From Candidatus Rariloculaceae bacterium (lineage in GTDB: Bacteria > Pseudomonadota > Gammaproteobacteria > Steroidobacterales > Rariloculaceae): a stretch of DNA of 64,000 nucleotides. Each line of letters opens with the position of its first letter. The first letter of the stretch is position 1. A program made the translations under genes and the position numbers. The notes under the pieces were generated by a model that worked only from the letters and a program-made list of their open reading frames with translations, made no database searches and was not told the origin of the DNA. Where the stretch lies: assembly GCA_965237785.1 (NCBI GenBank), contig OZ250159.1:1099656-1163655 (forward strand), read 5' to 3'. Of the stretch, positions 1,977 through 48,060 are shown piece by piece.

Positions 1977-4900
1977 ATGAACGATTCGCCCGTGCGCAAA
2001 CGAGCACTGGATACCAGTCAATCGTTTATCGTCCAGTCGCCAGCGGGTTCCGGCAAGACTGAGCTACTCATTCAGCGCTACCTGGCGCTACTGTCGACGG
2101 TCGAGTTACCGGAGCAAGTGGTCGCGATCACCTTTACCCGCAAGGCAGCCGCACAGATGCGCGCACGCGTACTGGCGGCATTGGCGAACGCCGCACTGAA
2201 GAAACCTCCGTCAGAGCCCCACCGGCGCGAGACATACGAGTTGGCGCGGCGCGCGCTGGCGCGAGATAGACACTGTAAGTGGTTCATGATCGATCAGCCC
2301 CGGCGTTTGAAAATCGATACGCTGGACGCGCTGAACTCCTGGCTCGCACAGCGGTTGCCGATGTCGGCGGGCGGAGTCGCGACAGCCCGAATCGTCGAGG
2401 ATGCTCGCGAGTACAATGCGCTCGCCGCCCGCCGTTTGATGCAGCGGTTGGGGGGCTCTTCGCCGGCCGCTGCCGCATTGCAGAACCTCCTGGAACACTC
2501 GACCGGTACCGATGAGGTCGTCGCCAAGCTGGCGGGAATGTTATCGACCCGTGACCAGTGGCTACCCCTGCTTCTCGCGGGGGAAGAGGGCCAATTGCGC
2601 CAAGAGGTCGATCGGGCCCTGCGTCGTTCGGTCGAGGACGATCTTGCCAATGTTGCCGGTTTGTTGCCCGCGGAGGCCGCCGCCCAACTTGCGCCATTGC
2701 TGCGTCATGCCGCCGAACACGCCCCTGAATACGGCACGGTATTCGAGGAATGGCGAGAACTCGGGGCGCTGCCCGCTCCCGAGTTTTCCCTGGTCAGGTC
2801 CTGGAAGGCATTGCCCGAACTCCTGTTAAATAAGCAGGGTGGTTGGCGCAAGCAACTGAGTGTTGTCGGTTTTTCGCGCCGCTTTGTCGAACCACAGGAG
2901 AAACTGAGAGCGTTGATCGCTTCGCTGGCGAACGCGAGCGATCTGCGCCTCGCGTTGCACGAATTAAGAGCCATACCGGCAACCGAACCGGGAGCCGCGT
3001 GGTGGGACGAACTGGCAGCGCTTCGCACGACACTGCAACACCTGGTAGCCGAGTTGCGCGTGCTGTTCGCGGAACGCGATGCGGCGGATTTTGTGGAGCT
3101 GGCTTTCGCGGCCCAGCGCGCCTTGGGAAGTACCACTCAACCATCCGAGCTGTTGCTGGCGCTGGACCGGCGGATCCAGCACATTCTCGTGGATGAGTTC
3201 CAGGACACGTCTCGCTCACAGATCAGGCTGCTCGAGCTGCTCACGGCGGGTTGGGAGCCGGGGGATGGCCGGTCGCTGTTCCTGGTGGGCGATCCGATGC
3301 AATCCATCTATCGCTTTCGAAATGCCGACATGGCGCTATTTCTGAAAGCGAAGTATCGGGGCATCGGTGATACTTATTGCGAGCCGCTGGTACTGACGCA
3401 GAATTTTCGTAGCAGCCCGATGTTGATCGAATGGGTCAACAGCGCGTTTTCTCACGTATTTCCGCAAACAGACGATATCAGGGCGGGTGCAGCCCGGTTC
3501 AGCCCATCTGTTGCAGCTAGAGCGCCGTCACGAAACGAGACGGTCGAGGTCCACGCCTTGCGGGGGACCGACCCCGAAGCGGAGACGAGGCACGTGGCAA
3601 ATATTGTTGCCGAGGAAAGGGCCCGGTCGCCAACAGGCTCCGTGGCCATTCTCGTGCAAAACCGGGCTCACCTGACGGGCTTGCGGTCCCACCTTCGAGC
3701 GTTGGGTCTGGAGGCGCATGCCGTGCAGATCGAGGCGCCGAACCAGTATCAGGTCACCCAGGACCTTATCGGCCTTACACGGGCTCTGACGCACTTTGCG
3801 GATCGTATCGCATGGTTGGCGGTACTGCGGGCTCCATGGTGCGGAATTCGATGGCGCGACTTGCATAGCCTCTGCCGGGACGATTCCGACAGCGCGGTCT
3901 GGACATTGATGCACGATCCCGGACGCATCGCCGGGCTCACCGCGGACGGACGCCACCGTGTCGCCGCCATTCGCGAGATTCTGCAGTTGGCATTTCAGTC
4001 ACGCGCCGCTCAACCCTTGGCGCACTGGGTGCAGCGCACCTGGGTGACTCTGGGCGGTCCTGCCTGTGTGGAGGATCCGGAGGATCTGGAACGTGCCGAG
4101 AGTTTTTTTTCAACTCTCGACGAAATCGCTACCTGTGGCGATCTTGACGATCCGGCGGCGTTGGAGAGTCTGTTCCAGGATCCATCATCCAGCACCGACC
4201 GCCCCCGGGAAAGCGGAATCGAAATTATGTCCATTCACCGGGCGAAAGGTCTGGAATTCGATAGCGTCATCGTTCTGGGTCTGGGCCGGGAGCCGCCGGC
4301 TCAGAGCGTGAAAGCGCTATGCTGGCATGAGCAAGTGCACGACAGCGGCGAGGAATCCGTCTTGTTGGCCCCGGCGCTTGCAGACAGCGCGGAATTCGAT
4401 GCGCTGACCCGGTGGGTAAGGGGTATGGAGCGGCGCAAGGATGACTCCGAGCGGGCGCGGCTTTTGTATGTTGCAGCTACCCGGGCAAGGGAACGCCTGC
4501 ATCTGGTGGGGCAGCTCGCTCCAGGCAGATCGTCGCCACCGCCAAGGAGTCTTCTGGCTTGCCTATGGCCGCGAGTGTCGACCGCGTTCGAGTCGGCGAA
4601 GGCGGTTGGCCAATCGCCCAAAGGGGAGGGCGAGGCCTTCGAATCCGAGCTCAGGCGCCTTGCCGAGCCGCAGAGCCTTGCGGAACTTCGGGTGGTCCCG
4701 CCGTCGCGGACGGTACGCCGACCTCATTTCGATTGGGCAGGCCAGGCCACTTTGCAAGTGGGTGTGGTGGTGCATCGTTGGCTGCAGACCATTGCTCGGG
4801 AAAGCACCGAGAGTTGGAATGGCGAGCGTGTACGCGCGGCCTCAAGCCGATTCCGGGAGGAGCTGAAGTTGCTTGGCGTCGAGGACGGCGAACTTGCCGA

Positions 4901-38913: not shown

Positions 38914-39121
38914 GGGCGGTAAAATCCGTTCGCAATCGCCTTTCATGGCCCGAACGTAGCACCGCCGGAAACGGGTCCGCAACGGCTTTCAGGAGGCCGC
39001 TTGCGCCGTGTTGACTCCTTGTTGACCCGGCGTGTAGGACTGTGAGCAGAGCCTCGATTGCCCTGATAAAAATCCTTTTATTTACGGTATGTTACGAGCG
39101 TTCTCGCGCCGCGGCGGCGAT

Positions 39122-39433
39122 TTATTGGTCAGGATCGAGAAGCACGCTCGCAAGGGCTGGCCCTTTCCCCATGCTCGGCTCAACGCCGCTTACGCCTCGG
39201 CGCCGGCCAGGGCGTCGTCCAGCTCGCTCGCGCGCCGCGGGCGCCAGCCCGTCTTCTGGGAACGCATCGGCCAGATACGCGCAAATCGCCGCCGTCTCCG
39301 TTACCGCTACGCTCCGGTGGCGAAGCGCCGGCACCTTGCCCATGGGATTGATCGCGCGATACCGCGCCGACTTCATCTCCGACGTGTTTCCATCGCGGCC
39401 TTCACTAACCTTCCTCGTCTCCTGTTTCAACAT
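39122..39433 (-). pseudogene. Glutathione S-transferase fragment
   Basis: ...KSARYRAINPMGKVPALRHRSVAVTETAAICAYLADAFPEDGLAP is a GST N-terminal (thioredoxin-like) domain segment. The beginning is overlapped by parE and the C-terminal domain is not recognisable in frame. Confidence 0.45.
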
Positions 39434-39767
39434 GACGTATCGGGTCCATCGAGTCGTGCAACAGTCGGAGAACGTCAATCACGGGCCGCTCTTCTTGTCT
39501 GTCGACCCGGTACAGCACGAGGTGTCGGCCTTTCCGGCCCCTGCGCGCCACATTCACAATCATCAAGCCTTCCGCAATTTCATCCCGTTTTCGCGATCCG
39601 GGAACGTCCGGTCCCGCTGCAAGCGATTCGATCGCCCGCGTCAAGGTCTCGGCATATTGGCGCGCCTGTGCCTCCCCGAACCGTTCCGACGTCCAACGAA
39701 CAATGTTCTGGAAATCAACCTCGGCGGCGGTTGTCAGACGGATGCGCCAACCGCGACCGTCGGCCAT
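39405..39767 (-). CDS. parE: ParE/RelE-family toxin
   Basis: 120 aa. ...RIRLTTAAEVDFQNIVRWTSERFGEAQARQYAETL...HLVLYRVD...VIDVLRLLHDSMD is the typical ParE pattern. Its ATG overlaps the antitoxin stop (TGATG). Confidence 0.8.
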   Translation of the reverse strand: MADGRGWRIRLTTAAEVDFQNIVRWTSERFGEAQARQYAETLTRAIESLAAGPDVPGSRKRDEIAEGLMIVNVARRGRKGRHLVLYRVDRQEERPVIDVLRLLHDSMDPIRHVETGDEEG

Positions 39768-40069
39768 CAGGAGTTGTCGGTTTTGGGCGAACCGGGGCCG
39801 AGCGCCTCCGCGGTAAGCGCGGACAAGTCCTCGCGCAGCGCCTCCGCCGCGTCGAATGCACGATAGCGCCCCGCTGCGATATCGGCGATGCCGGCCTCCG
39901 CGGCCGTCCGCATGGCCTTCAGGCGGATATTCTCTTCCACATCCCGCCGCTCAACGAGCCTCAGACCCTCACGCATCACTTCACTGGCATTCTGATAACG
40001 GCCGGACGCGACCAGCCTTGCGACAAGGGACGCCTGATAATCCGAAAGGACAACATTACGCGTCGGCAT
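39767..40069 (-). CDS. parD: ParD-family (RHH/COG3609) antitoxin
   Basis: MPTRNVVLSDYQASLVARLVASGRYQNASEVMREGLRLVERRD. AAGGAG ribosome-binding site upstream of the ATG at 40069. Confidence 0.8.
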   Translation of the reverse strand: MPTRNVVLSDYQASLVARLVASGRYQNASEVMREGLRLVERRDVEENIRLKAMRTAAEAGIADIAAGRYRAFDAAEALREDLSALTAEALGPGSPKTDNS

Positions 40070-40090
40070 GACAAATTCTCCTTGGCGGAA

Positions 40091-40117
40091 CCCTATTGGC
40101 ATATTATGCCAATAGGG
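40091..40117. promoter_or_regulatory. 27-bp perfect palindrome, probable parDE operator
   Basis: ccctattggcata-t-tatgccaataggg (13-bp arms), 22 nt upstream of the parD ATG. Confidence 0.5.
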
Positions 40118-40284
40118 CCAGGATTGTCATACTTCAGTAGCGTCGATTCTGGAAATCGACGCCCTCGCGACGAACATCGGTGAGCGGGCTAGCGCCTGAC
40201 ACGCGGGTCTGCCATCCTTGTGCTTGCGTCCGGGTTCGATGGGCACGATGAACCATCGCGCCCGCAGAAGGGCAGTGGTGCAAA

Positions 40285-41322
40285 ATGCGGGTCAAGGCTC
40301 TGCGTGCGATCATTCTGGCAGCGATTTGCGGCGGAGCCGCGGTCGCCGTGTGCATGATCGCGATGCTGGGCTGGCAAACGCTGGGCACGCCCATGAACGT
40401 CGCCGCGCCCGGGGAATGGCTCAACGTGGCGCCGGGGACATCGCTGACTCGCATCAGCAGCGAATTGTCCCGGCGGGGCATGCTCGACTCGTCGTGGGCG
40501 CTCAACGCGTACGCCCGTTATTCCGGAGACGCGACACGAATTCACGCCGGGGAATACCTCATCGACCGGGGAACCACGCCCCGACAGTTGCTTGAGCAGT
40601 TGGTCAGCGGGCGCGTCCACCTGCACGACATGGCGATCATCGAGGGCTGGCGGTTCGAGGACGTGATCATCGCCCTGCGAAACCACCAGGCCGTGGATGC
40701 CAGCACATTGGATTCGGAGACCGTAATGGCGGAGTTGGGCAAGCCCGAACTTCATCCGGAAGGCCAGTTTTACCCCGATACCTACCGGTTTCCGAGGAAC
40801 ACCGCCGCCGGGGACATTCTCAGACAGGCCCATGACGCAATGGAAGATCGGCTCAACCGGGCCTGGGAGCAGTATCGCTCCACTACCGTGTTGACGTCAC
40901 CGTACGATGTGCTGATATTGGCGTCGATCATCGAGAAGGAGACGGCCGTGAACGAAGAACGCCGTCGAATCTCGGGCGTATTTCACCGCCGAATGGAACG
41001 CGGCATGCGTCTGCAGACCGATCCCACCGTAATCTACGGCCTGGGAGCGGATTTCGATGGCAATCTACGCCGATCCGACCTGGCGCGCGACACGCCCTAC
41101 AACACCTATACACGATCGGGATTCCCACCCACACCCATCGCGTTGCCGAGCCAGGAATCCCTGTTGGCGGCGGTGAATCCGGACTCCGGCGCGGAACTTT
41201 ACTTTGTGGCAACCGGGCTGGGGGATGGAAGCCATCATTTCTCTACTACCTTCGATGAACACCGGGCCGCCGTGGCCCGGTATCGGTCGGGGGCTGCGTA
41301 TACCGAGAACGCCGCGCAGTGA
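40285..41322 (+). CDS. mltG: Endolytic murein transglycosylase MltG (YceG)
   Basis: N-terminal TM helix, then ...IHAGEYLI...TPRQLLEQLVSG...IIEGWRFEDV...LASIIEKET...ISGVFHRRMERGMRLQTDPTVIYG...YNTYTRSGFPPTPIA. Confidence 0.9.
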   Translation: MRVKALRAIILAAICGGAAVAVCMIAMLGWQTLGTPMNVAAPGEWLNVAPGTSLTRISSELSRRGMLDSSWALNAYARYSGDATRIHAGEYLIDRGTTPRQLLEQLVSGRVHLHDMAIIEGWRFEDVIIALRNHQAVDASTLDSETVMAELGKPELHPEGQFYPDTYRFPRNTAAGDILRQAHDAMEDRLNRAWEQYRSTTVLTSPYDVLILASIIEKETAVNEERRRISGVFHRRMERGMRLQTDPTVIYGLGADFDGNLRRSDLARDTPYNTYTRSGFPPTPIALPSQESLLAAVNPDSGAELYFVATGLGDGSHHFSTTFDEHRAAVARYRSGAAYTENAAQ

Positions 41323-41954
41323 GAGGCGCGTTCATCACCCTGGAAGGCACCGAGGGCGTCGGCAAATCCACCTGTATGGACTACGTGGTCGACACCCTTG
41401 CCGCGGCGGACATCCCGGTCGTGGTCACTAGAGAACCCGGTGGTACGCCGTTGGGGGAACGTATCCGGGAGTGGATTCTGCAAGGGGATCACGCCACGTT
41501 GTCCGCGGAGACGGAAACGCTGCTGATGTTCGCCTCCCGGGCGTACCATCTGGATGAAGTCATCCGCCCGGCGCTTATGGCCGGGAAGTGGGTGGTCTGC
41601 GATCGCTTCAGCGATGCAACCGCCGCCTACCAGGGCGGTGGTCACGGCGCCAGCCCGTCCTGGATCGCGTCGCTACGTGGCGCGGTACACGGTAACCTGG
41701 AACCGGATCTGACACTTTTGCTCGATGCGCCCGTGGAAGTGGGAATGGACCGAATTCGCGGGCGCGATCCGGACCATTTCGAGCGTGAGGACAAGGGTTT
41801 TTTCGCGCGCGTGCGCGAGACGTATCTTCACTTGGCGAAGACCAGCCCGGACCGCATCATCTTGGTGGATGCGACGCGAATTTTGCCCGAGGTCAGACGA
41901 CAAATCGTCGCGCACGTGGAGGCGTTCGTACGCCGATTTCCTAACGCATCATGA
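41319..41954 (+). CDS. tmk: Thymidylate kinase
   Basis: FITLEGTEGVGKST P-loop and DRF.DAT.AYQG. The GTG start overlaps the mltG stop. Confidence 0.9.
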   Translation: MRGAFITLEGTEGVGKSTCMDYVVDTLAAADIPVVVTREPGGTPLGERIREWILQGDHATLSAETETLLMFASRAYHLDEVIRPALMAGKWVVCDRFSDATAAYQGGGHGASPSWIASLRGAVHGNLEPDLTLLLDAPVEVGMDRIRGRDPDHFEREDKGFFARVRETYLHLAKTSPDRIILVDATRILPEVRRQIVAHVEAFVRRFPNAS

Positions 41955-42985
41955 CCACAATGTCCCCGTACGAGACACTCAGCACGGGCGTATGCCCGTG
42001 GTTGCATGCCCCGCTGGGCAAACTGGAAGCGGCACATGGCGGCGGCCGTATGGCTCACGGATGGTTGTTGGCAGGATCGAAGGGCACGGGCAAGATCAAT
42101 CTTGCGCTGGCCGCAGCCCGCCGGCTTTTGGAGGGTTCCAATCGTCCGGTGAAGAGCCTGGGGGCCGATGAGGCCGCGGTGGCTATGGCCGAGCGCCACG
42201 TGCCTGCGGATCATCACCCCGATCTCCACTGGCTTTTCCCTGAATCCGGGCGTCGAACGCTTGCCGTTGACCAAATTCGCGAAGCCACCCGCGCACTTTC
42301 CCTTACCAGCCTTGCGGGCCAGGCCAAGGTGCTTGTGCTGGAAACCGCAGATGCAATGACAACGTCGGCTGCCAATGCCTTGCTGAAAACCTTGGAGGAG
42401 CCAAGCGCCAAGACCTATTTGCTGTTGATTTCTCACCAGCCGGGACGGCTACCGGCGACGGTTCGCAGCCGTTGCCAGTCGCTTGCCGTGCAACGCCCGC
42501 CCGCTGCAGACACAGTCGCCTGGCTTGGAGCAAGCAAATCAGAGGCGCGGGCGGCTGACTGGGCGACGCTCGTGGTCCTGGCCGAGGGGTCTCCGTTTCG
42601 CGCCATTGCATTCAATGATGGTGATTTTATAAATAAAAATAAATATCTACAAAAACAATTTAAACTAATATCTGAAAACAGAATCGATCCTCAGAAAGTT
42701 GCCGACGAGTGGCTCAAGGGGGATATTGAACTCGCCCTCGGTTGGCTGACGGCGCGGTTGCACGCGGTGATTCGGATGCGACTGGCGCCAGACACCGCCG
42801 CAGGCGATGCGAGCCTGGGGGCCGAAGAATCAGGCGATGCGTGGCAGCGATGGACAACGCGATTTCTGTTCGAACAGTTGCAAAATGTGGAGTTGCTTCT
42901 ACGCCGACTTGGCGGTGGAATAAATGTGGACCTGGCCACCAGGGCTTTGTTGCTTGAATTCGAATCGCGGGGAGGGCGGCGGTGA
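41951..42985 (+). CDS. holB: DNA polymerase III delta-prime subunit
   Basis: PWLHAPL...HGWLLAGSKGTGK...LLKTLEEPS...TVRSRCQ. Position after tmk (ATGA overlap). Contains an anomalous AT-rich in-frame segment, described in the findings. Confidence 0.85.
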   Translation: MTTMSPYETLSTGVCPWLHAPLGKLEAAHGGGRMAHGWLLAGSKGTGKINLALAAARRLLEGSNRPVKSLGADEAAVAMAERHVPADHHPDLHWLFPESGRRTLAVDQIREATRALSLTSLAGQAKVLVLETADAMTTSAANALLKTLEEPSAKTYLLLISHQPGRLPATVRSRCQSLAVQRPPAADTVAWLGASKSEARAADWATLVVLAEGSPFRAIAFNDGDFINKNKYLQKQFKLISENRIDPQKVADEWLKGDIELALGWLTARLHAVIRMRLAPDTAAGDASLGAEESGDAWQRWTTRFLFEQLQNVELLLRRLGGGINVDLATRALLLEFESRGGRR

Positions 42986-43314
42986 CCGTATCTGGACAAT
43001 TGACGCTGACAATCCCGGGCGAGCGTGCACTCTACCGGGCGTATATGCCCTTCATTCGTAACGGCGGGCTATTTGTGCGTACCGATCGCAGCTATGAACT
43101 GGGTGATGACGTATCGATCGAGCTCAATCTGATGGGCGCGGCAGAGCCGGTCCCGGTCTCGGGAAAGGTCATCTGGATTACGCCCAGGCGGGCGCAGGGC
43201 AAGCGGCCCGCGGGAATTGGAGTGCAGTTCAACGACAACGCGAGGTATCGCAGGGAAATCGAAGCGCAATTGACCGGGTTGCCGGGAAGCGACGAATTGA
43301 CGCACACGCTGTAA
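42982..43314 (+). CDS. pilZ: PilZ-domain protein
   Basis: 110 aa. LYRAYMPFIRNGGLFVRTD...GDDVSIEL...GKVIWITP...AGIGVQF. Conserved position after holB, as in Pseudomonas. Confidence 0.8.
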   Translation: MTVSGQLTLTIPGERALYRAYMPFIRNGGLFVRTDRSYELGDDVSIELNLMGAAEPVPVSGKVIWITPRRAQGKRPAGIGVQFNDNARYRREIEAQLTGLPGSDELTHTL

Positions 43315-43321
43315 CGCCCGG

Positions 43322-45325
43322 CTATAGCAACTTCTGCCAACCCGGATGCGGCGTGAAACGGGGACCGAAAGCGGCCGCAAGGGATTCCAGTCGCTGGACC
43401 GTGGCCCGGATGCCTCGTTGTCGCGCGTATTGGATCGGACCGCCTGTGTAGGGCGCAAATCCGGTACCGAAGACGATACCGGCGTCCACGAGATCCGGAT
43501 CGCCGACGACACGTTCTTCGTAACAGGCCACCGCCGCGTTCACGATCTGCAGGATCAGCCGGTCCTGAAGATGCTCGTCCGGCGCGGCAAAGTTGCGTGA
43601 TTTTTGTGGGTGGCCACCCTCGAACCTGTAGAAACCGATTCCGCTCTTGGCTCCCAATTCACCGGCCTGCACCTTATCCTCCAATATGGAGATCGCGTCA
43701 CCCAGGCGTTCGCCGAGCGTTGCAGCCGCCTTCAAGGCAACATCCAATCCCACGCGGTCAGCAAGTTCTACCGGCCCCATGGGCATGCCGAAGTTTTCGG
43801 CTGCCCGGTCGATCGTTTCGGGGGCGTGGCCATCCCGGTGCGCCGCGAGCGCCTCGGCGAAGTAGGGCGCGAGGATGCGATTGACCAGGAAACCCGGGGT
43901 ATCGCGGCATGGCAGAGGTAGCTTCCCGATCGCGGTGACAAACGCGGTCGCCCGATTGAGGTTCGACGGGTCCGTGGCCTGGCCACGTACGACTTCCACC
44001 AGGGGGAGTTTGGCCACTGGGTTGAAGAAATGCAGGCCGAGAAACCGTTCAGGGCGCCGCAGTCCTTCGGAAAGTCGCTCCAGGGAGATGCTCGAAGTGT
44101 TGGTCGCGAGCAGGGCGTCGGCGCGCATGCGTCGTTCCAGATCCCGAAACAGCGCTCGTTTGGCGTCCGGGCGCTCGACAATGGCTTCTATGACCAGGTC
44201 CGCGTCCGCGACTCCGTCCGCATCGGCAACGAGTCGTCGCTGCGCCTCGGCGGCGGCTCCCGGGGCCTCGAGGCGCCGTTCGAAGAGGGCCGCTGCCCTC
44301 GTCAACGCCGGCTCGATCTGCGCGCCGGATTGATCGTGAACCGTCACGGTGAATCCACGCAACGCGCACCAGGCGGCGATATCGCCTCCCATGACCCCGG
44401 TTCCGGCCACATGGACATGGCGTATCTCGTGCGACTTCGGTGCTGCTCCGCGCAATCGTTCACGCAGGAAAAACACCCGCACCAGGTTTCGGGAGGTTGA
44501 TGAGACCAGGAGCTTGCCGATGGAATGCGCCTCGGCCCGGTAGGCCGATGGTCCGGCGGCGCCGTGACGTACCCACAGATCCACGATCGCGGCGGGCGCG
44601 GGATAATGTACGCGGCGCGCCCGGCGTTCGATCCGGGCGTGCAACCGCCGGCCCATCCAGCGCCTGACGGGCGCCAGGTTGAGCATTCGCAAGTGAATTG
44701 GAGCGCGGCGTTTGGGTGGTCTGCTGGCAATGAATTCGCTCGCGACTCGATCGATTTCGGCAGCAGCTACGATGCGGTCGACCAGCCCGACGCGCCGGGC
44801 TTCCAGAGGTGATATGGATCTTCCGGTCAGCATGAGATCCAGTGCCGTCATCGGACCCAGGAGCCGGACGCTCCGCACCGTTCCACCAAACCCCGGATGG
44901 ATGCCGAGTCGCACCTCCGGCAGTCCCATGCAGCGCTCGTGGCTTGCCGCGGCGATTCGGTAATCGCAAGCCAACGCCAGTTCCAGTCCGCCACCCAGCG
45001 CAAAGCCGTGCATTGCGGCAACGGTGGGGCAGGGCAGGTTTTCCAACCGGTTCAGCAGTGCATGGGCGTGATTGGCCAGCGTTTCCACCTGGGCCGGGTT
45101 GCGCAGCCCGCGAAACTCTGAAATGTCGGCCCCGGCGACGAACCCGGAGTCTTTGGCTGATTTGATCACCACACCCGCGGGTGGATCGGCAGCGATTTGA
45201 TCGATCAGGTCGGCCAGTTCCTGAAGCACGGGCTGAGACAGGACATTTGTTCCGCTGTTTGCCTTGTCCAGCAATAGCCAGCGGATACCGTTCGGATCGT
45301 CCTCCACTTTCCATTGATCGGTCAT
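43322..45325 (-). CDS. Bifunctional enoyl-CoA hydratase / 3-hydroxyacyl-CoA dehydrogenase (FadB/FadJ-like)
   Basis: N-terminal crotonase domain (SGFVAGADISEF) followed by the NAD-binding VAGTGVMGGDIAAW and the HFFNPV motif. Confidence 0.85.
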   Translation of the reverse strand: MTDQWKVEDDPNGIRWLLLDKANSGTNVLSQPVLQELADLIDQIAADPPAGVVIKSAKDSGFVAGADISEFRGLRNPAQVETLANHAHALLNRLENLPCPTVAAMHGFALGGGLELALACDYRIAAASHERCMGLPEVRLGIHPGFGGTVRSVRLLGPMTALDLMLTGRSISPLEARRVGLVDRIVAAAEIDRVASEFIASRPPKRRAPIHLRMLNLAPVRRWMGRRLHARIERRARRVHYPAPAAIVDLWVRHGAAGPSAYRAEAHSIGKLLVSSTSRNLVRVFFLRERLRGAAPKSHEIRHVHVAGTGVMGGDIAAWCALRGFTVTVHDQSGAQIEPALTRAAALFERRLEAPGAAAEAQRRLVADADGVADADLVIEAIVERPDAKRALFRDLERRMRADALLATNTSSISLERLSEGLRRPERFLGLHFFNPVAKLPLVEVVRGQATDPSNLNRATAFVTAIGKLPLPCRDTPGFLVNRILAPYFAEALAAHRDGHAPETIDRAAENFGMPMGPVELADRVGLDVALKAAATLGERLGDAISILEDKVQAGELGAKSGIGFYRFEGGHPQKSRNFAAPDEHLQDRLILQIVNAAVACYEERVVGDPDLVDAGIVFGTGFAPYTGGPIQYARQRGIRATVQRLESLAAAFGPRFTPHPGWQKLL

Positions 45326-47766: not shown

Positions 47767-47997
47767 TGCCTGTCCCCAGTGTCGAAATCGGTACAGAACC
47801 TTAGATGCCGCAGTGTCTTCGAGGTTCACTCATGATTGGCAAGATAGCACATGTTCGCCTGAAAATCGTTTGCCTATCGGAGACTCGAGGACGCCGCGGT
47901 GCAATGGCCCAACACAATGAATATTTCATATGATATTGCGCATAATATATATTATGTTAAGTAATGCATGGGGTGGTATTACCGCCTGGGCCCCTTC

Positions 47998-48035
47998 CAA
48001 AAGAAAACCGCGGACACCCTGGGGTATCCGCGGTC
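47998..48035 (-). terminator. Rho-independent terminator
   Basis: On the minus strand: gaccgcgga-(12 nt loop)-tccgcggt followed by tttcttttgg, just downstream of the gene ending at 48061. Confidence 0.6.
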
Positions 48036-48060
48036 TGCTTTACAGCCTTGATACAGAGGC

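Follow-up and report, generated by a model that had tools for sequence, protein, structure and literature searches.

How does a stretch of about 20% GC come to lie, in frame, deep inside an essential clamp-loader gene of a GC-rich bacterium? The gene that raises this question is holB of a Candidatus Rariloculaceae bacterium, located within a 64,000-nucleotide stretch of DNA that was analyzed as a whole and is called the window here. An earlier note had singled out positions 42611–42690 as an in-frame island inside holB, with 17 G or C in 80 nt and surroundings above 60% GC, and this description holds: our recount of the segment, letters as quoted, again gave 17 G+C (21%), the segment lies in frame within the holB open reading frame, and holB outside the island has 62.6% GC overall and 66% GC at third codon positions (GC3). 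The sliding-window GC plot that the note had proposed places the sharpest dip of the window at 42611–42690, and the island is the GC minimum of the window at every scale tested, with 7.5, 13, 19 and 26% over 40, 60, 80 and 100 nt, respectively. At 80 nt the window has a mean of 60.7% and a standard deviation of 6.4%, placing the island ∼6 standard deviations under the mean. Eight segments of the window have 36% GC or less over 50 nt, and only the holB island is deep inside a gene, the other seven being intergenic or at most 63 nt from a gene start. The segment translates as FNDGDFINKNKYLQKQFKLISENRID; it contains no in-frame stop, as had been noted, with two and six stops in the other two sense frames. 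Its parts are as follows.

42590–42610, forward strand: upstream boundary, codons 214–220 (SPFRAIA), a conserved GC-rich protein motif ending domain II.
42611–42690, forward strand: the segment as delimited in the earlier note, part of codons 221–247, 17 G+C in 80 nt.
42614–42682, forward strand: core of the AT-rich island, codons 222–244, 69 nt, depleted of G+C both at codon positions 1 and 2 and at position 3.
42686–42712, forward strand: downstream boundary, codons 246–254 (DPQKVADEW), nearly invariant in the clade, where GC is normal again.

The identity of the host gene is clear. Its product matches the Pfam family DNA_pol3_delta2 (PF13177) with E = 2e-33 (116 bits, cut-off 27) and the E. 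coli delta' chains 1a5t and 8val of the PDB with E ∼5e-30 over residues 16–226, and the identical HolB protein is present in both NCBI and ENA. The pairwise alignment with E. coli delta' stops at query residue 226, equivalent to E. coli residue 212, and the island maps to the junction of domains II and III and the first helix of domain III. The gene belongs to a four-gene operon in which every junction is a 4-nt overlap of stop and start, so that intergenic room for signals is absent.

40285–43314, forward strand: operon mltG-tmk-holB-pilZ, every junction a 4-nt stop/start overlap.
40285–41322, forward strand: mltG (Pfam YceG).
41319–41954, forward strand: tmk (Pfam Thymidylate_kin), whose stop overlaps the holB start by 4 nt.
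41951–42985, forward strand: holB, DNA polymerase III delta' subunit, an open reading frame of 344 codons that hosts the island.
42982–43314, forward strand: pilZ (Pfam PilZ).

The order of these four genes is the same in all orthologous loci with flanks, and tmk-holB synteny with a stop/start overlap is a general gammaproteobacterial pattern (PMC10653934). The pilZ gene begins with GTG, preceded at 6 nt by a GGAGG of its own.

To place the island in an evolutionary frame, we compared holB orthologs drawn from unrelated ENA, JGI, NCBI and Logan assemblies, ten of which were brought in by a DNA pattern for the DPQKVADEW motif. The AT-rich island was found at residues ∼222–244 in 19/19 orthologs with DNA (46–79% protein identity) and, with the window's own holB included, in 20/20 clade members with DNA. 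Across these 20 members the island has 19–44% GC and the rest of holB 60–73%, with clade means of 0.22–0.25 in the island and 0.6–0.75 in the remaining gene, and the depletion affects codon positions 1 and 2 (GC12, clade mean 0.20–0.28) as well as GC3 (0.19–0.27). Orthologs of 79, 76, 69, 67, 66, 65, 62 and 54–53% identity all have a patch of 19–27% GC, while the island is much weaker, at 35–44% GC, in three lineages (L088, L089 and L091). In the alignments GC drops directly past the SPFRAIA motif, and the 50–60 bp at the island are the most AT-rich in nearly every orthologous locus of 7–21 kb, falling under any intergenic region. The signature is present in 88/120 protein clusters. The outgroup holB set came from a contig profile search with the universal motifs NALLKTLEE and PAT[IV]RSRCQ, the matches listed all having 44% identity or less; among these matches, the GC dip was not found in ∼80 more distant holB genes.

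These comparisons run against the origin that the earlier note had favored, namely that a low-GC donor had contributed a short mosaic patch or insertion. In the ortholog alignment that it had called for, the segment aligns without gaps, 26 residues against 26 in the 20 clade members and in most outgroups, and is thus not an insertion; a recent mosaic patch is contradicted by the same island recurring in every ortholog, down to 46% identity. Relatives encoding these residues with normal-GC codons, which the note had named as a possible sign of an artefact, did not appear among the orthologs, which share the low GC. Searching plasmids and phages with the 80-mer by BLASTN gave only chance-level matches in AT-rich DNA (at best 45 nt at 87% in plasmids and 50 nt at 80% in phages), and lent no support to a donor among these mobile elements.

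We then considered whether the composition is maintained. In the window's island, 22/23 third positions are A or T against 8.2 expected from the amino acids (z = 6.1), and the excess over the amino-acid expectation recurs at z >= 2.8 in 16–17/20 orthologs, with z = 3–6 in most. The protein is affected as well: the FYMINK share is 0.48 in the island and 0.11 in the rest of the gene, and it is also 0.11 in the homologous segment of 45 GC-rich outgroups among the matches listed. Where residues of the island have been replaced, the replacements keep AT-rich codons, as in NDG (AAT GAT GGT), KER (AAG GAA AGA) and RDS (AGA GAT AGT). Outside the island, four-fold sites of distant members have an identity of 0.25–0.35 against 0.28–0.30 expected at saturation, yet island GC3 in these members is still 0.15–0.42. 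Since neutral sites elsewhere in the gene are saturated, the island composition must be actively maintained, and an unselected import would have been erased. Relaxed protein constraint alone does not yield AT-richness either, as the loop at residues 279–294 of HolB is disordered and indel-rich, yet GC-rich.

On these grounds the island very probably dates back to the ancestral holB of a large uncultured gammaproteobacterial clade, has kept its place in the gene and owes its lasting low GC to selection on composition itself; this conclusion takes in, with the same high confidence, that selection acts on third positions while the encoded helix is also pushed to amino acids with AT-rich codons, and that the conserved trait is the composition rather than a particular sequence. 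The clade ancestor may conceivably have acquired the segment from a foreign source, but this would leave its persistence unexplained. Of the alternatives in the earlier note, an embedded cis element is favored in its general form by selection at both synonymous and nonsynonymous sites, whereas its protein-binding form finds no motif match that beats codon shuffles. The island would then be an unusually clean natural case of nucleotide-composition selection overriding protein sequence: ∼23 codons at ∼20% GC have been held in an essential, slowly evolving replication gene long enough to saturate neutral sites, the low GC being accommodated by an encoded helix remade with Asn, Lys, Phe, Tyr and Ile. 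It bears on how GC-rich bacteria embed decay, translation-rate, transcription-start or melting signals in coding DNA and on the degree to which such signals constrain protein evolution, and it indicates that compositional outliers in core genes are not automatically horizontal transfer or misassembly. Because the signal is sharp, conserved and set in a four-gene operon without spacers, it offers a directly testable model. The literature searched contained no description of an AT-rich island in holB.

As for what the composition does, we tentatively infer an action on the mltG-tmk-holB-pilZ mRNA, in which the island may be where RNase E enters and cleaves, keeping HolB output down. The transcript of this GC-rich operon is heavily structured and, with its 4-nt overlaps, leaves signals no room between genes; in it the island would present the one long unpaired A/U-rich stretch as the entry and cleavage point for RNase E and the degradosome. 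Cut at the island, the holB mRNA would remain functional for less time than the mltG-tmk part upstream, and pilZ would be uncoupled, so that a clamp-loader subunit of which very few copies are required would be produced more slowly than its translationally coupled neighbours. For 12-mers unpaired at P > 0.2 in the 3.2-kb operon RNA, 30/49 positions are in the island, which is unpaired in the consensus fold and is the largest unpaired stretch of the operon RNA. RNWUU motifs, the RNase E cleavage consensus, occur at 4.7 per 100 nt in the island and 0.7 in the rest of the gene (6.7-fold), and one of them recurs at a fixed place.

42657–42661, forward strand: AAUUU, a match to RNWUU that begins at this alignment column in 13/20 orthologs.

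The position of this AAUUU follows from a conserved [K/N]-F dipeptide combined with A/T third positions and is not independent evidence; similarly, accessibility and RNWUU enrichment follow from AT-richness and do not discriminate between hypotheses. An excess of A on the sense strand (A/T = 1.51 in the island, 1.01 in the rest of the gene) was considered as a sign of an RNA role, and is weakened as such by an A/T of 1.25 in the homologous segment of low-GC outgroups among the matches listed, which makes it partly a coding constraint.

Sites of the proposed kind are known in GC-rich Rhodobacter, where, according to the passages of PMC6238624 on the puf operon, rate-limiting RNase E cleavage of puf mRNA begins at AU-rich coding sequences of pufQ and pufL and sets the stoichiometry of operon products. 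As summarised there from Heck et al. 2000 and Fritsch et al. 1995, the puf sites resemble the holB island in being AU-rich coding stretches of a polycistronic mRNA in a GC-rich genome, and by the same passages operon segments of different stability translate into product stoichiometry, which for holB is only proposed. The puf sites described in those passages (PMC6238624) were mapped experimentally, while the holB site is a candidate. A single-stranded A/U-rich segment with RNWUU-type motifs in a polycistronic mRNA, the puf-type arrangement, is present in holB as a consequence of its composition. Unlike puf, the holB island spans ∼70 nt at ∼20% GC and has its amino-acid composition reshaped, and we know of no puf site as long or as extreme. 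A second parallel is the E. coli rpsU-dnaG-rpoD operon, in which dnaG is reportedly expressed discoordinately by means of rare codons and an RNase E site. There too a few-copy replication protein is co-transcribed with abundant products and held low at the level of codons and mRNA decay, but the rare codons are dispersed, RNase E acts in the spacer between dnaG and rpoD, and a compositional island is absent. Several features speak against cleavage by RNase E. A site needs only ∼10–20 nt, and 69 nt with 22/23 A/T third positions seems to exceed that; a cut at 64–71% of the gene would be a poor means of reducing HolB synthesis, since the truncated mRNA would leave ribosomes stalled; and the much weaker island in L088, L089 and L091 indicates that the function is dispensable.

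The same codons could instead act on the ribosome. The earlier note had remarked on codons hardly used in the rest of the window, and the island is indeed the strongest run of non-preferred synonymous codons among the 42 window genes, with a mean log2 RSCU over 20 codons of -0.93 against -0.60 for the next gene. It is conceivable, though rather unlikely, that these ∼23 scarce or weakly pairing A/U-rich codons form a slow-translation patch that pauses ribosomes past the AAA+ module (domains I–II), and such a pause would help HolB to fold or assemble as it is translated, or would do no more than limit its output. In keeping with this, the lowest-RSCU cluster of the window genes has a position conserved clade-wide, at the domain II/III junction and first domain III helix, and CTA (2.6%), TCT (5%), AGA (5%) and ATA (11%) make up small shares of their synonymous families. 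The expected slowing is small, however, as the genomic bias is modest: AAA, AAT, TTT, TAT and CAA each make up 31–36% of their own synonymous family in the genome. holB is also a low-expression gene, in which translational selection is weak, and a pause requires synonymous changes only, yet the amino-acid composition is massively shifted.

Position-specific conserved rare-codon clusters are documented (Chaney et al. 2017; PMC5438181), and the island is like them in that non-preferred codons recur at one alignment position in distantly related homologs. By its definition the class excludes the effects of %GC and amino-acid bias, which are treated as confounders and not as evidence of rarity (PMC5438181), whereas the holB island is itself a GC and amino-acid shift: its GC12 falls as far as its GC3, so that the signal is not independent of either bias. 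The documented clusters are furthermore depleted near domain boundaries (PMC5438181), and the holB island sits at one.

An internal promoter is unlikely as well, whether in the sense direction, giving pilZ a transcript of its own, or antisense, giving an RNA that opposes the 5' part of holB and tmk. Every other low-GC spot of the window being intergenic or at a gene start, AT-richness marks regulatory regions here, and within an operon lacking intergenic space pilZ has its own GGAGG. A consensus scan of 41300–43400 nevertheless found 0 sites, and position weight matrices with codon-shuffle controls on both strands supported no sigma-70 promoter: the best sense scores were 4–8 bits, at or under the codon-shuffled expectation in most orthologs, and the antisense scores did not significantly exceed codon shuffles (p = 0.04–0.96). 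The best match in the island is the following.

42624–42652, reverse strand: sigma-70-like match, candidate only, TTGTAG, 17 nt, TAAAAT, 12.0 bits.

This match has p ∼0.12 against codon-shuffled islands and lies under the consensus-scan threshold. Antisense −35/−10-like hexamers 17 nt apart arise from two conserved blocks in 12/20 orthologs, and a second antisense site reaches 12 bits in the window, L164 and L119, but the hexamers are accounted for by conserved [D/E]-[F/Y] and [K/N]-F codons, and a search of the antisense strand for a terminator-like site downstream of the island gave none. A promoter would in any case need two hexamers rather than 23 AT-rich codons in a row; elsewhere in the window, the putative promoter regions have 28–36% GC over 50 nt against 10% in the island, and the variable loop at residues 279–294 would be an easier promoter location, closer to pilZ.

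Other specific signals fared no better. H-NS high-affinity, IHF, Fis, DnaA-box and sigma-54 motifs did not beat codon shuffles, with a median of 0.6–0.9 of the shuffles equalling or beating the observed match for H-NS, IHF, Fis and DnaA. Hfq distal-face (ARN)n repeats, four to five at codons 227–232 in ten orthologs, were not beyond shuffles. The window gave no Rfam match, and conserved RNA structure was not found in the island, where the consensus energy is -1.1 kcal/mol with one covarying pair and the single-sequence z-score is -0.37. An overlapping gene conserved in the orthologs was not found, the sense +2 frame being open downstream in only 8/20, and the open antisense frame, a shadow frame of the kind common to GC-rich genes, merely ends at the stop codons of the island. 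Inspection by eye revealed no zero-frame X XXY YYZ heptamer for a programmed frameshift, TTTAAAC being out of register and not conserved in L083, and a Ter/Tus site is represented only by a chance ATTAGT match, the GTTGTAAC core being absent.

With no promoter, nucleoid-protein, Hfq, RNA-structure or overlapping-frame signal beating shuffles, the element is defined by composition only. It is distinctly unlikely that the island represents a new type of intragenic element defined in this way, whether as a conserved ∼70 bp of DNA that melts in a bistable manner or is occupied by a nucleoid protein, or as a run made up wholly of A/U codons. If it did, clamp-loader synthesis would depend on the state of supercoiling or on how A/U-decoding tRNAs are supplied or modified, and selection would be powerful enough to have recast a folded helix in an essential replication protein throughout an order-level clade. 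Streptomyces offers a precedent for the codon form in bldA control, which relies on one codon type (TTA) and a regulated tRNA. As there, A/U-rich codons avoided by the genome, placed in particular genes of a GC-rich organism, could tie translation to tRNA supply; TTA, CTA, ATA and AGA are all found in the island across various orthologs. The island differs in holding ∼23 mixed codons rather than a single type.

Quite improbable, too, is a site read in the DNA itself, melting most easily under supercoiling stress or nucleating an H-NS/MvaT-like AT-binding protein, and so serving as a landmark in topology or chromatin or as a block to transcription. The exceptional AT-richness of these 50–60 bp within nearly every 7–21-kb orthologous locus agrees with such a role, and the ∼70-bp length with conservation of composition only would fit readers of minor-groove shape and duplex destabilisation. 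The motifs of the known nucleoid proteins are no better than in codon-shuffled islands, however, it would be surprising for an essential replication gene to be silenced or blocked, and a link to the nearby dif and the terminus fails because a distant subclade keeps the island with no dif within 5–6 kb. Xenogeneic islands silenced by H-NS, MvaT or Lsr2 are likewise sharply AT-rich DNA in a GC-rich chromosome, but they are horizontally acquired, kilobases long and strain-variable, whereas the holB island is 70 bp of a core essential gene, vertically inherited, conserved deep in the clade and not enriched in known motifs.

It is very improbable that the island is a historical relic, an ancient gene-conversion tract from a low-GC holB or a local cold spot of mutation or gBGC that was simply never erased. 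Its composition and amino acids do resemble the homologous holB segment of genomes with 32–36% GC (L025, for example), and it is partly lost in three lineages. Low island GC3 among members with saturated four-fold sites, a least constrained HolB loop that remains GC-rich and replacements that go on choosing AT-rich codons all stand against it; plasmids and phages yielded nothing donor-like, and no mechanism is known that would bound a cold spot so sharply within just 70 bp.

Finally, an assembly chimera, which the earlier note had raised, or a sequencing artefact has the odd composition alone in its favor and is vanishingly improbable, given that the island recurs in 19 orthologs from unrelated assemblies and that the holB DNA is 100% identical in an independent long-read contig from ENA, which comes from a near-identical strain and has 20 differences from the window further downstream.

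The gene that carries the AT-rich island is an ordinary holB:

41951-42985, + strand: holB, DNA polymerase III delta' subunit, 344 codons (Pfam DNA_pol3_delta2, E = 2e-33; E. coli delta' in PDB, E ~5e-30)

It is the third gene of mltG-tmk-holB-pilZ, an operon in which all three junctions are 4-nt stop/start overlaps. As the earlier note had counted, positions 42611-42690 hold 17 G or C in 80 nt and stay open in the holB frame, with no stop in that frame and 2 and 6 stops in the remaining two sense frames. The island is the GC minimum of the 64-kb window at all scales tested (7.5%, 13%, 19% and 26% at 40, 60, 80 and 100 nt), with GC across the whole window at the 80-nt scale averaging 60.7% (sd 6.4%). 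Eight window segments reach 36% GC or less over 50 nt; seven are intergenic or no more than 63 nt from a gene start, and only the holB segment sits well within a gene, its 10% GC being much the lowest of the eight. The remark that its codons are hardly used elsewhere in the window is borne out as well, since the island is the strongest run of non-preferred synonymous codons across the 42 window genes.

A sequencing or assembly artefact can essentially be excluded, with next to no probability left to it. The identical HolB protein is recorded in NCBI on a 4.39-Mb contig and on an independent ENA long-read contig from a near-identical strain (L081), which matches the window at 100% identity over 38951-43236, all of holB included, and thus disposes of the proposed assembly chimera. 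The insertion that had been suggested is contradicted by the protein alignment, in which residues 221-246 match the orthologs without gaps, so that no residues were inserted. Compared by BLASTN with plasmid and phage sequences in search of a mobile-element donor, the segment had only chance-level matches in AT-rich DNA.

Ortholog DNA was obtained for 19 holB genes, 9 by exact-protein look-up and 10 by scanning metagenomes for the clade-specific DPQxVADEW pattern. Of the 20 clade members, counting the window, 16 have a patch with 19-32% GC overall and 12-42% at third positions, against 60-68% and 65-77% for holB outside it; the dip is weaker in L088, L089, L091 and L158 (35-44% GC). Clade-mean GC is 0.22-0.25 at residues ~223-243 versus 0.6-0.75 everywhere else in the gene, and the fall is equal at codon positions 1+2 (0.20-0.28) and position 3 (0.19-0.27), with sharp edges flanked by the conserved protein motifs SPFRAI and DPQxVADEW. 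Nearly all orthologous loci, 7-21 kb in length, have their sole or lowest low-GC segment at the island, below any intergenic region, and the protein-level signature of the island is present in 88 of the 120 best database clusters. The presence of the dip at the same codons in all 19 orthologs, and its absence from ~80 more distant holB genes (≤44% identity) among the matches listed by the genome scan, indicate an island that was inherited from the ancestor of a large clade of uncultured Gammaproteobacteria and is confined to that clade; the nearest outgroup holB has GC of 0.63 in the patch and 0.67 in the remainder.

In L088, the ortholog with the weakest island (patch GC 0.44), a 162-nt spacer (2839-3000) that is not AT-rich replaces the normal 4-nt tmk-holB overlap; losing the island and losing translational coupling between tmk and holB may be connected. 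A second, much milder compositional shift is seen in all orthologs over the last ~50 holB codons (~293-344, window ~42830-42985), beside the overlapping pilZ start, where clade-mean GC3 is 0.56-0.67 versus 0.75-0.80 upstream.

Selection on composition is visible in both codons and residues. Of the 23 degenerate third positions in the window island, 22 are A/T, where 8.2 would be expected from the encoded amino acids and from codon usage in the clade outside the island (z = 6.1); z is 3-6 for most orthologs. Phe, Tyr, Met, Ile, Asn and Lys account for 48% of island residues, against 11% both in the remaining protein and in the homologous segment of 45 GC-rich outgroups, and Gly, Ala, Arg and Pro are down to 7% from 36-38%. 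Even where residues have been replaced, the codons are AT-rich (for instance N-D-G as AAT GAT GGT, K-E-R as AAG GAA AGA, R-D-S as AGA GAT AGT). Outside the island, four-fold degenerate sites have reached saturation, with identities of 0.25-0.35 between the window and the distant L169, L114, L090 and L161 against a saturation expectation of 0.28-0.30, and an unselected import would for that reason have drifted to genomic GC3 long ago. A relic without function is therefore very improbable and essentially excluded, and the mosaic patch from a low-GC donor envisaged in the earlier note finds no support, given the same saturation and the dip shared by every ortholog. Relaxed protein constraint was rejected as the cause, as the island lies on a confident helix and the disordered, indel-rich HolB loop 279-294 remains GC-rich (0.60-0.71 across the clade). 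These comparisons argue that the low-GC composition is actively maintained and strongly selected, in an island that is extreme, sharp-edged and deeply conserved and that has reshaped a folded helix in an essential protein.

Sequence-specific signals were evaluated with codon-shuffled versions of the islands as controls. A sigma-70 consensus scan of 41300-43400 found none, and the best sense-strand position weight matrix scores in the island (4-8 bits) lie at or under the shuffled expectation. Sigma-70-like matches on the antisense strand (TTGTAG-17-TAAAAT in the window; the TTTAAA/TTGAAA-17-TATTTT type, shared by 12 of 20 orthologs) are better than those on the sense strand but do not significantly exceed codon shuffles, and arise from conserved [D/E]-[F/Y] and [K/N]-F codons. 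Neither the H-NS high-affinity motif, IHF, Fis, DnaA boxes and sigma-54 nor Hfq (ARN)n runs exceeded the shuffles; no Rfam family matched, no conserved RNA structure was found in the island (consensus energy -1.1 kcal/mol), its folding energy is not unusual (z = -0.37 sense, -1.6 antisense), and no conserved alternative-frame ORF overlaps it. The tests speak against a sigma-70 promoter, a known nucleoid-protein site or a structured RNA, and also against a rare-codon cluster in the strict sense, the island being inseparable from GC and amino-acid bias. The earlier suggestion of an embedded cis element is supported in its general form, as the composition is maintained. Conservation is of composition rather than of sequence, which points to an element acting via its length and its A/T (or A/U) content, and so to a signal at the nucleotide level within coding DNA; a literature search returned no description of an AT-rich island in holB.

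Four readings of this element all fit. The one we rank first, tentatively, is that an unstructured A/U-rich stretch of the mltG-tmk-holB-pilZ mRNA would serve as an RNase E entry site. The cell requires far fewer molecules of HolB than of MltG or Tmk, which gives this reading its rationale, and since the operon has no intergenic space, a signal separating the expression of its members must lie in coding sequence. Among predicted unpaired 12-mers (P > 0.2) in the 3.2-kb operon RNA, 30 of 49 positions fall in the island, where RNWUU density is 6.7 times that of the remainder of holB; one such motif, at 42657, is shared in position by 13 of 20 orthologs. The sense strand of the island is also A-rich (A/T = 1.51). 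A direct precedent comes from Rhodobacter, likewise GC-rich, in which the rate-limiting cut of puf mRNA by RNase E begins at AU-rich sequences within the pufQ and pufL coding regions and determines the stoichiometry of the operon products (PMC6238624). The holB island, a putative cleavage site, resembles these intragenic AU-rich sites of puf. Accessibility and RNWUU enrichment, however, follow automatically from composition, and the A excess of the sense strand is partly a coding effect, the homologous segment of low-GC outgroups having A/T = 1.25, which weakens the case for RNase E. In addition, 69 nt exceeds what a cleavage site needs, and a cut two-thirds into holB is an odd route to lower HolB output.

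A patch of slowly decoded codons is less probable. In the AlphaFold model (mean pLDDT 80.6) the island covers the last part of helix 215-223 together with a confidently predicted helix of 16 residues, 226-241, and pairwise alignment with E. coli delta' stops at query residue 226 (E. coli residue 212). Set against the delta' structure (Guenther et al. 1997), this places the island where domains II and III meet and on the helix that opens domain III. This position and the codon statistics agree with a pause, but codon bias in this genome is mild and a pause needs no amino-acid changes. Moreover, the published definition of conserved rare-codon clusters leaves out effects of GC and amino-acid bias, and such clusters are depleted where domains adjoin (PMC5438181). 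A promoter inside holB is unlikely, given the negative motif tests and a run of 23 consecutive AT-rich codons that it would not require. A DNA site for melting or for an AT-rich-DNA-binding protein is the most doubtful, with no motif support and no candidate protein known in the clade. Some of the probability goes to mechanisms other than these four.

Several features surround the operon:

~39122-40069, - strand: GST-like gene and ParE/ParD toxin-antitoxin pair, directly upstream of mltG (Pfam assignments via the identical L081 stretch)
43322-45325, - strand: enoyl-CoA hydratase/3-hydroxyacyl-CoA dehydrogenase gene (667 residues), convergent with pilZ (+)
47934-47961, + strand: dif-like XerC/XerD site, ATTGCGCATAA TATATA TTATGTTAAGT, in the intergenic gap 47830-48060

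The ends of pilZ and the convergent gene are 7 nt apart (43314-43322), and a scan for a terminator-like hairpin between them found none. After 4.3 kb of identity to L081, 19 SNPs and a 1-nt indel (20 sites) cluster in the 1.6 kb of 43237-44873; the indel, at 43240 inside pilZ, takes the called PilZ from 110 to 93 residues. The break at 43236/43237 resembles a recombination junction of near-identical strains, or may in part reflect errors in long reads.

The dif-like site, identical to E. coli dif at 24 of 28 positions, is the second-lowest GC spot of the window and lies 4.95 kb 3' of the holB stop, which places the window probably at the replication terminus; cumulative GC skew has no clear peak there. 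L160 (position 6832) and L179 (position 15939) have the identical 24-mer core equally far from holB; the distant subclade lacks it within 5-6 kb. An outgroup Burkholderiales MAG has a dif-like 24-mer with 3 mismatches to that of the window (L066:2932-2955), ~2.3 kb 3' of its holB, so the proximity outside the clade may be recurrent or a coincidence. Upstream of mltG, orthologous loci have fabF (ketoacyl synthase) where this genome has the GST-like gene and ParE/ParD, which marks an insertion or rearrangement in this genome.
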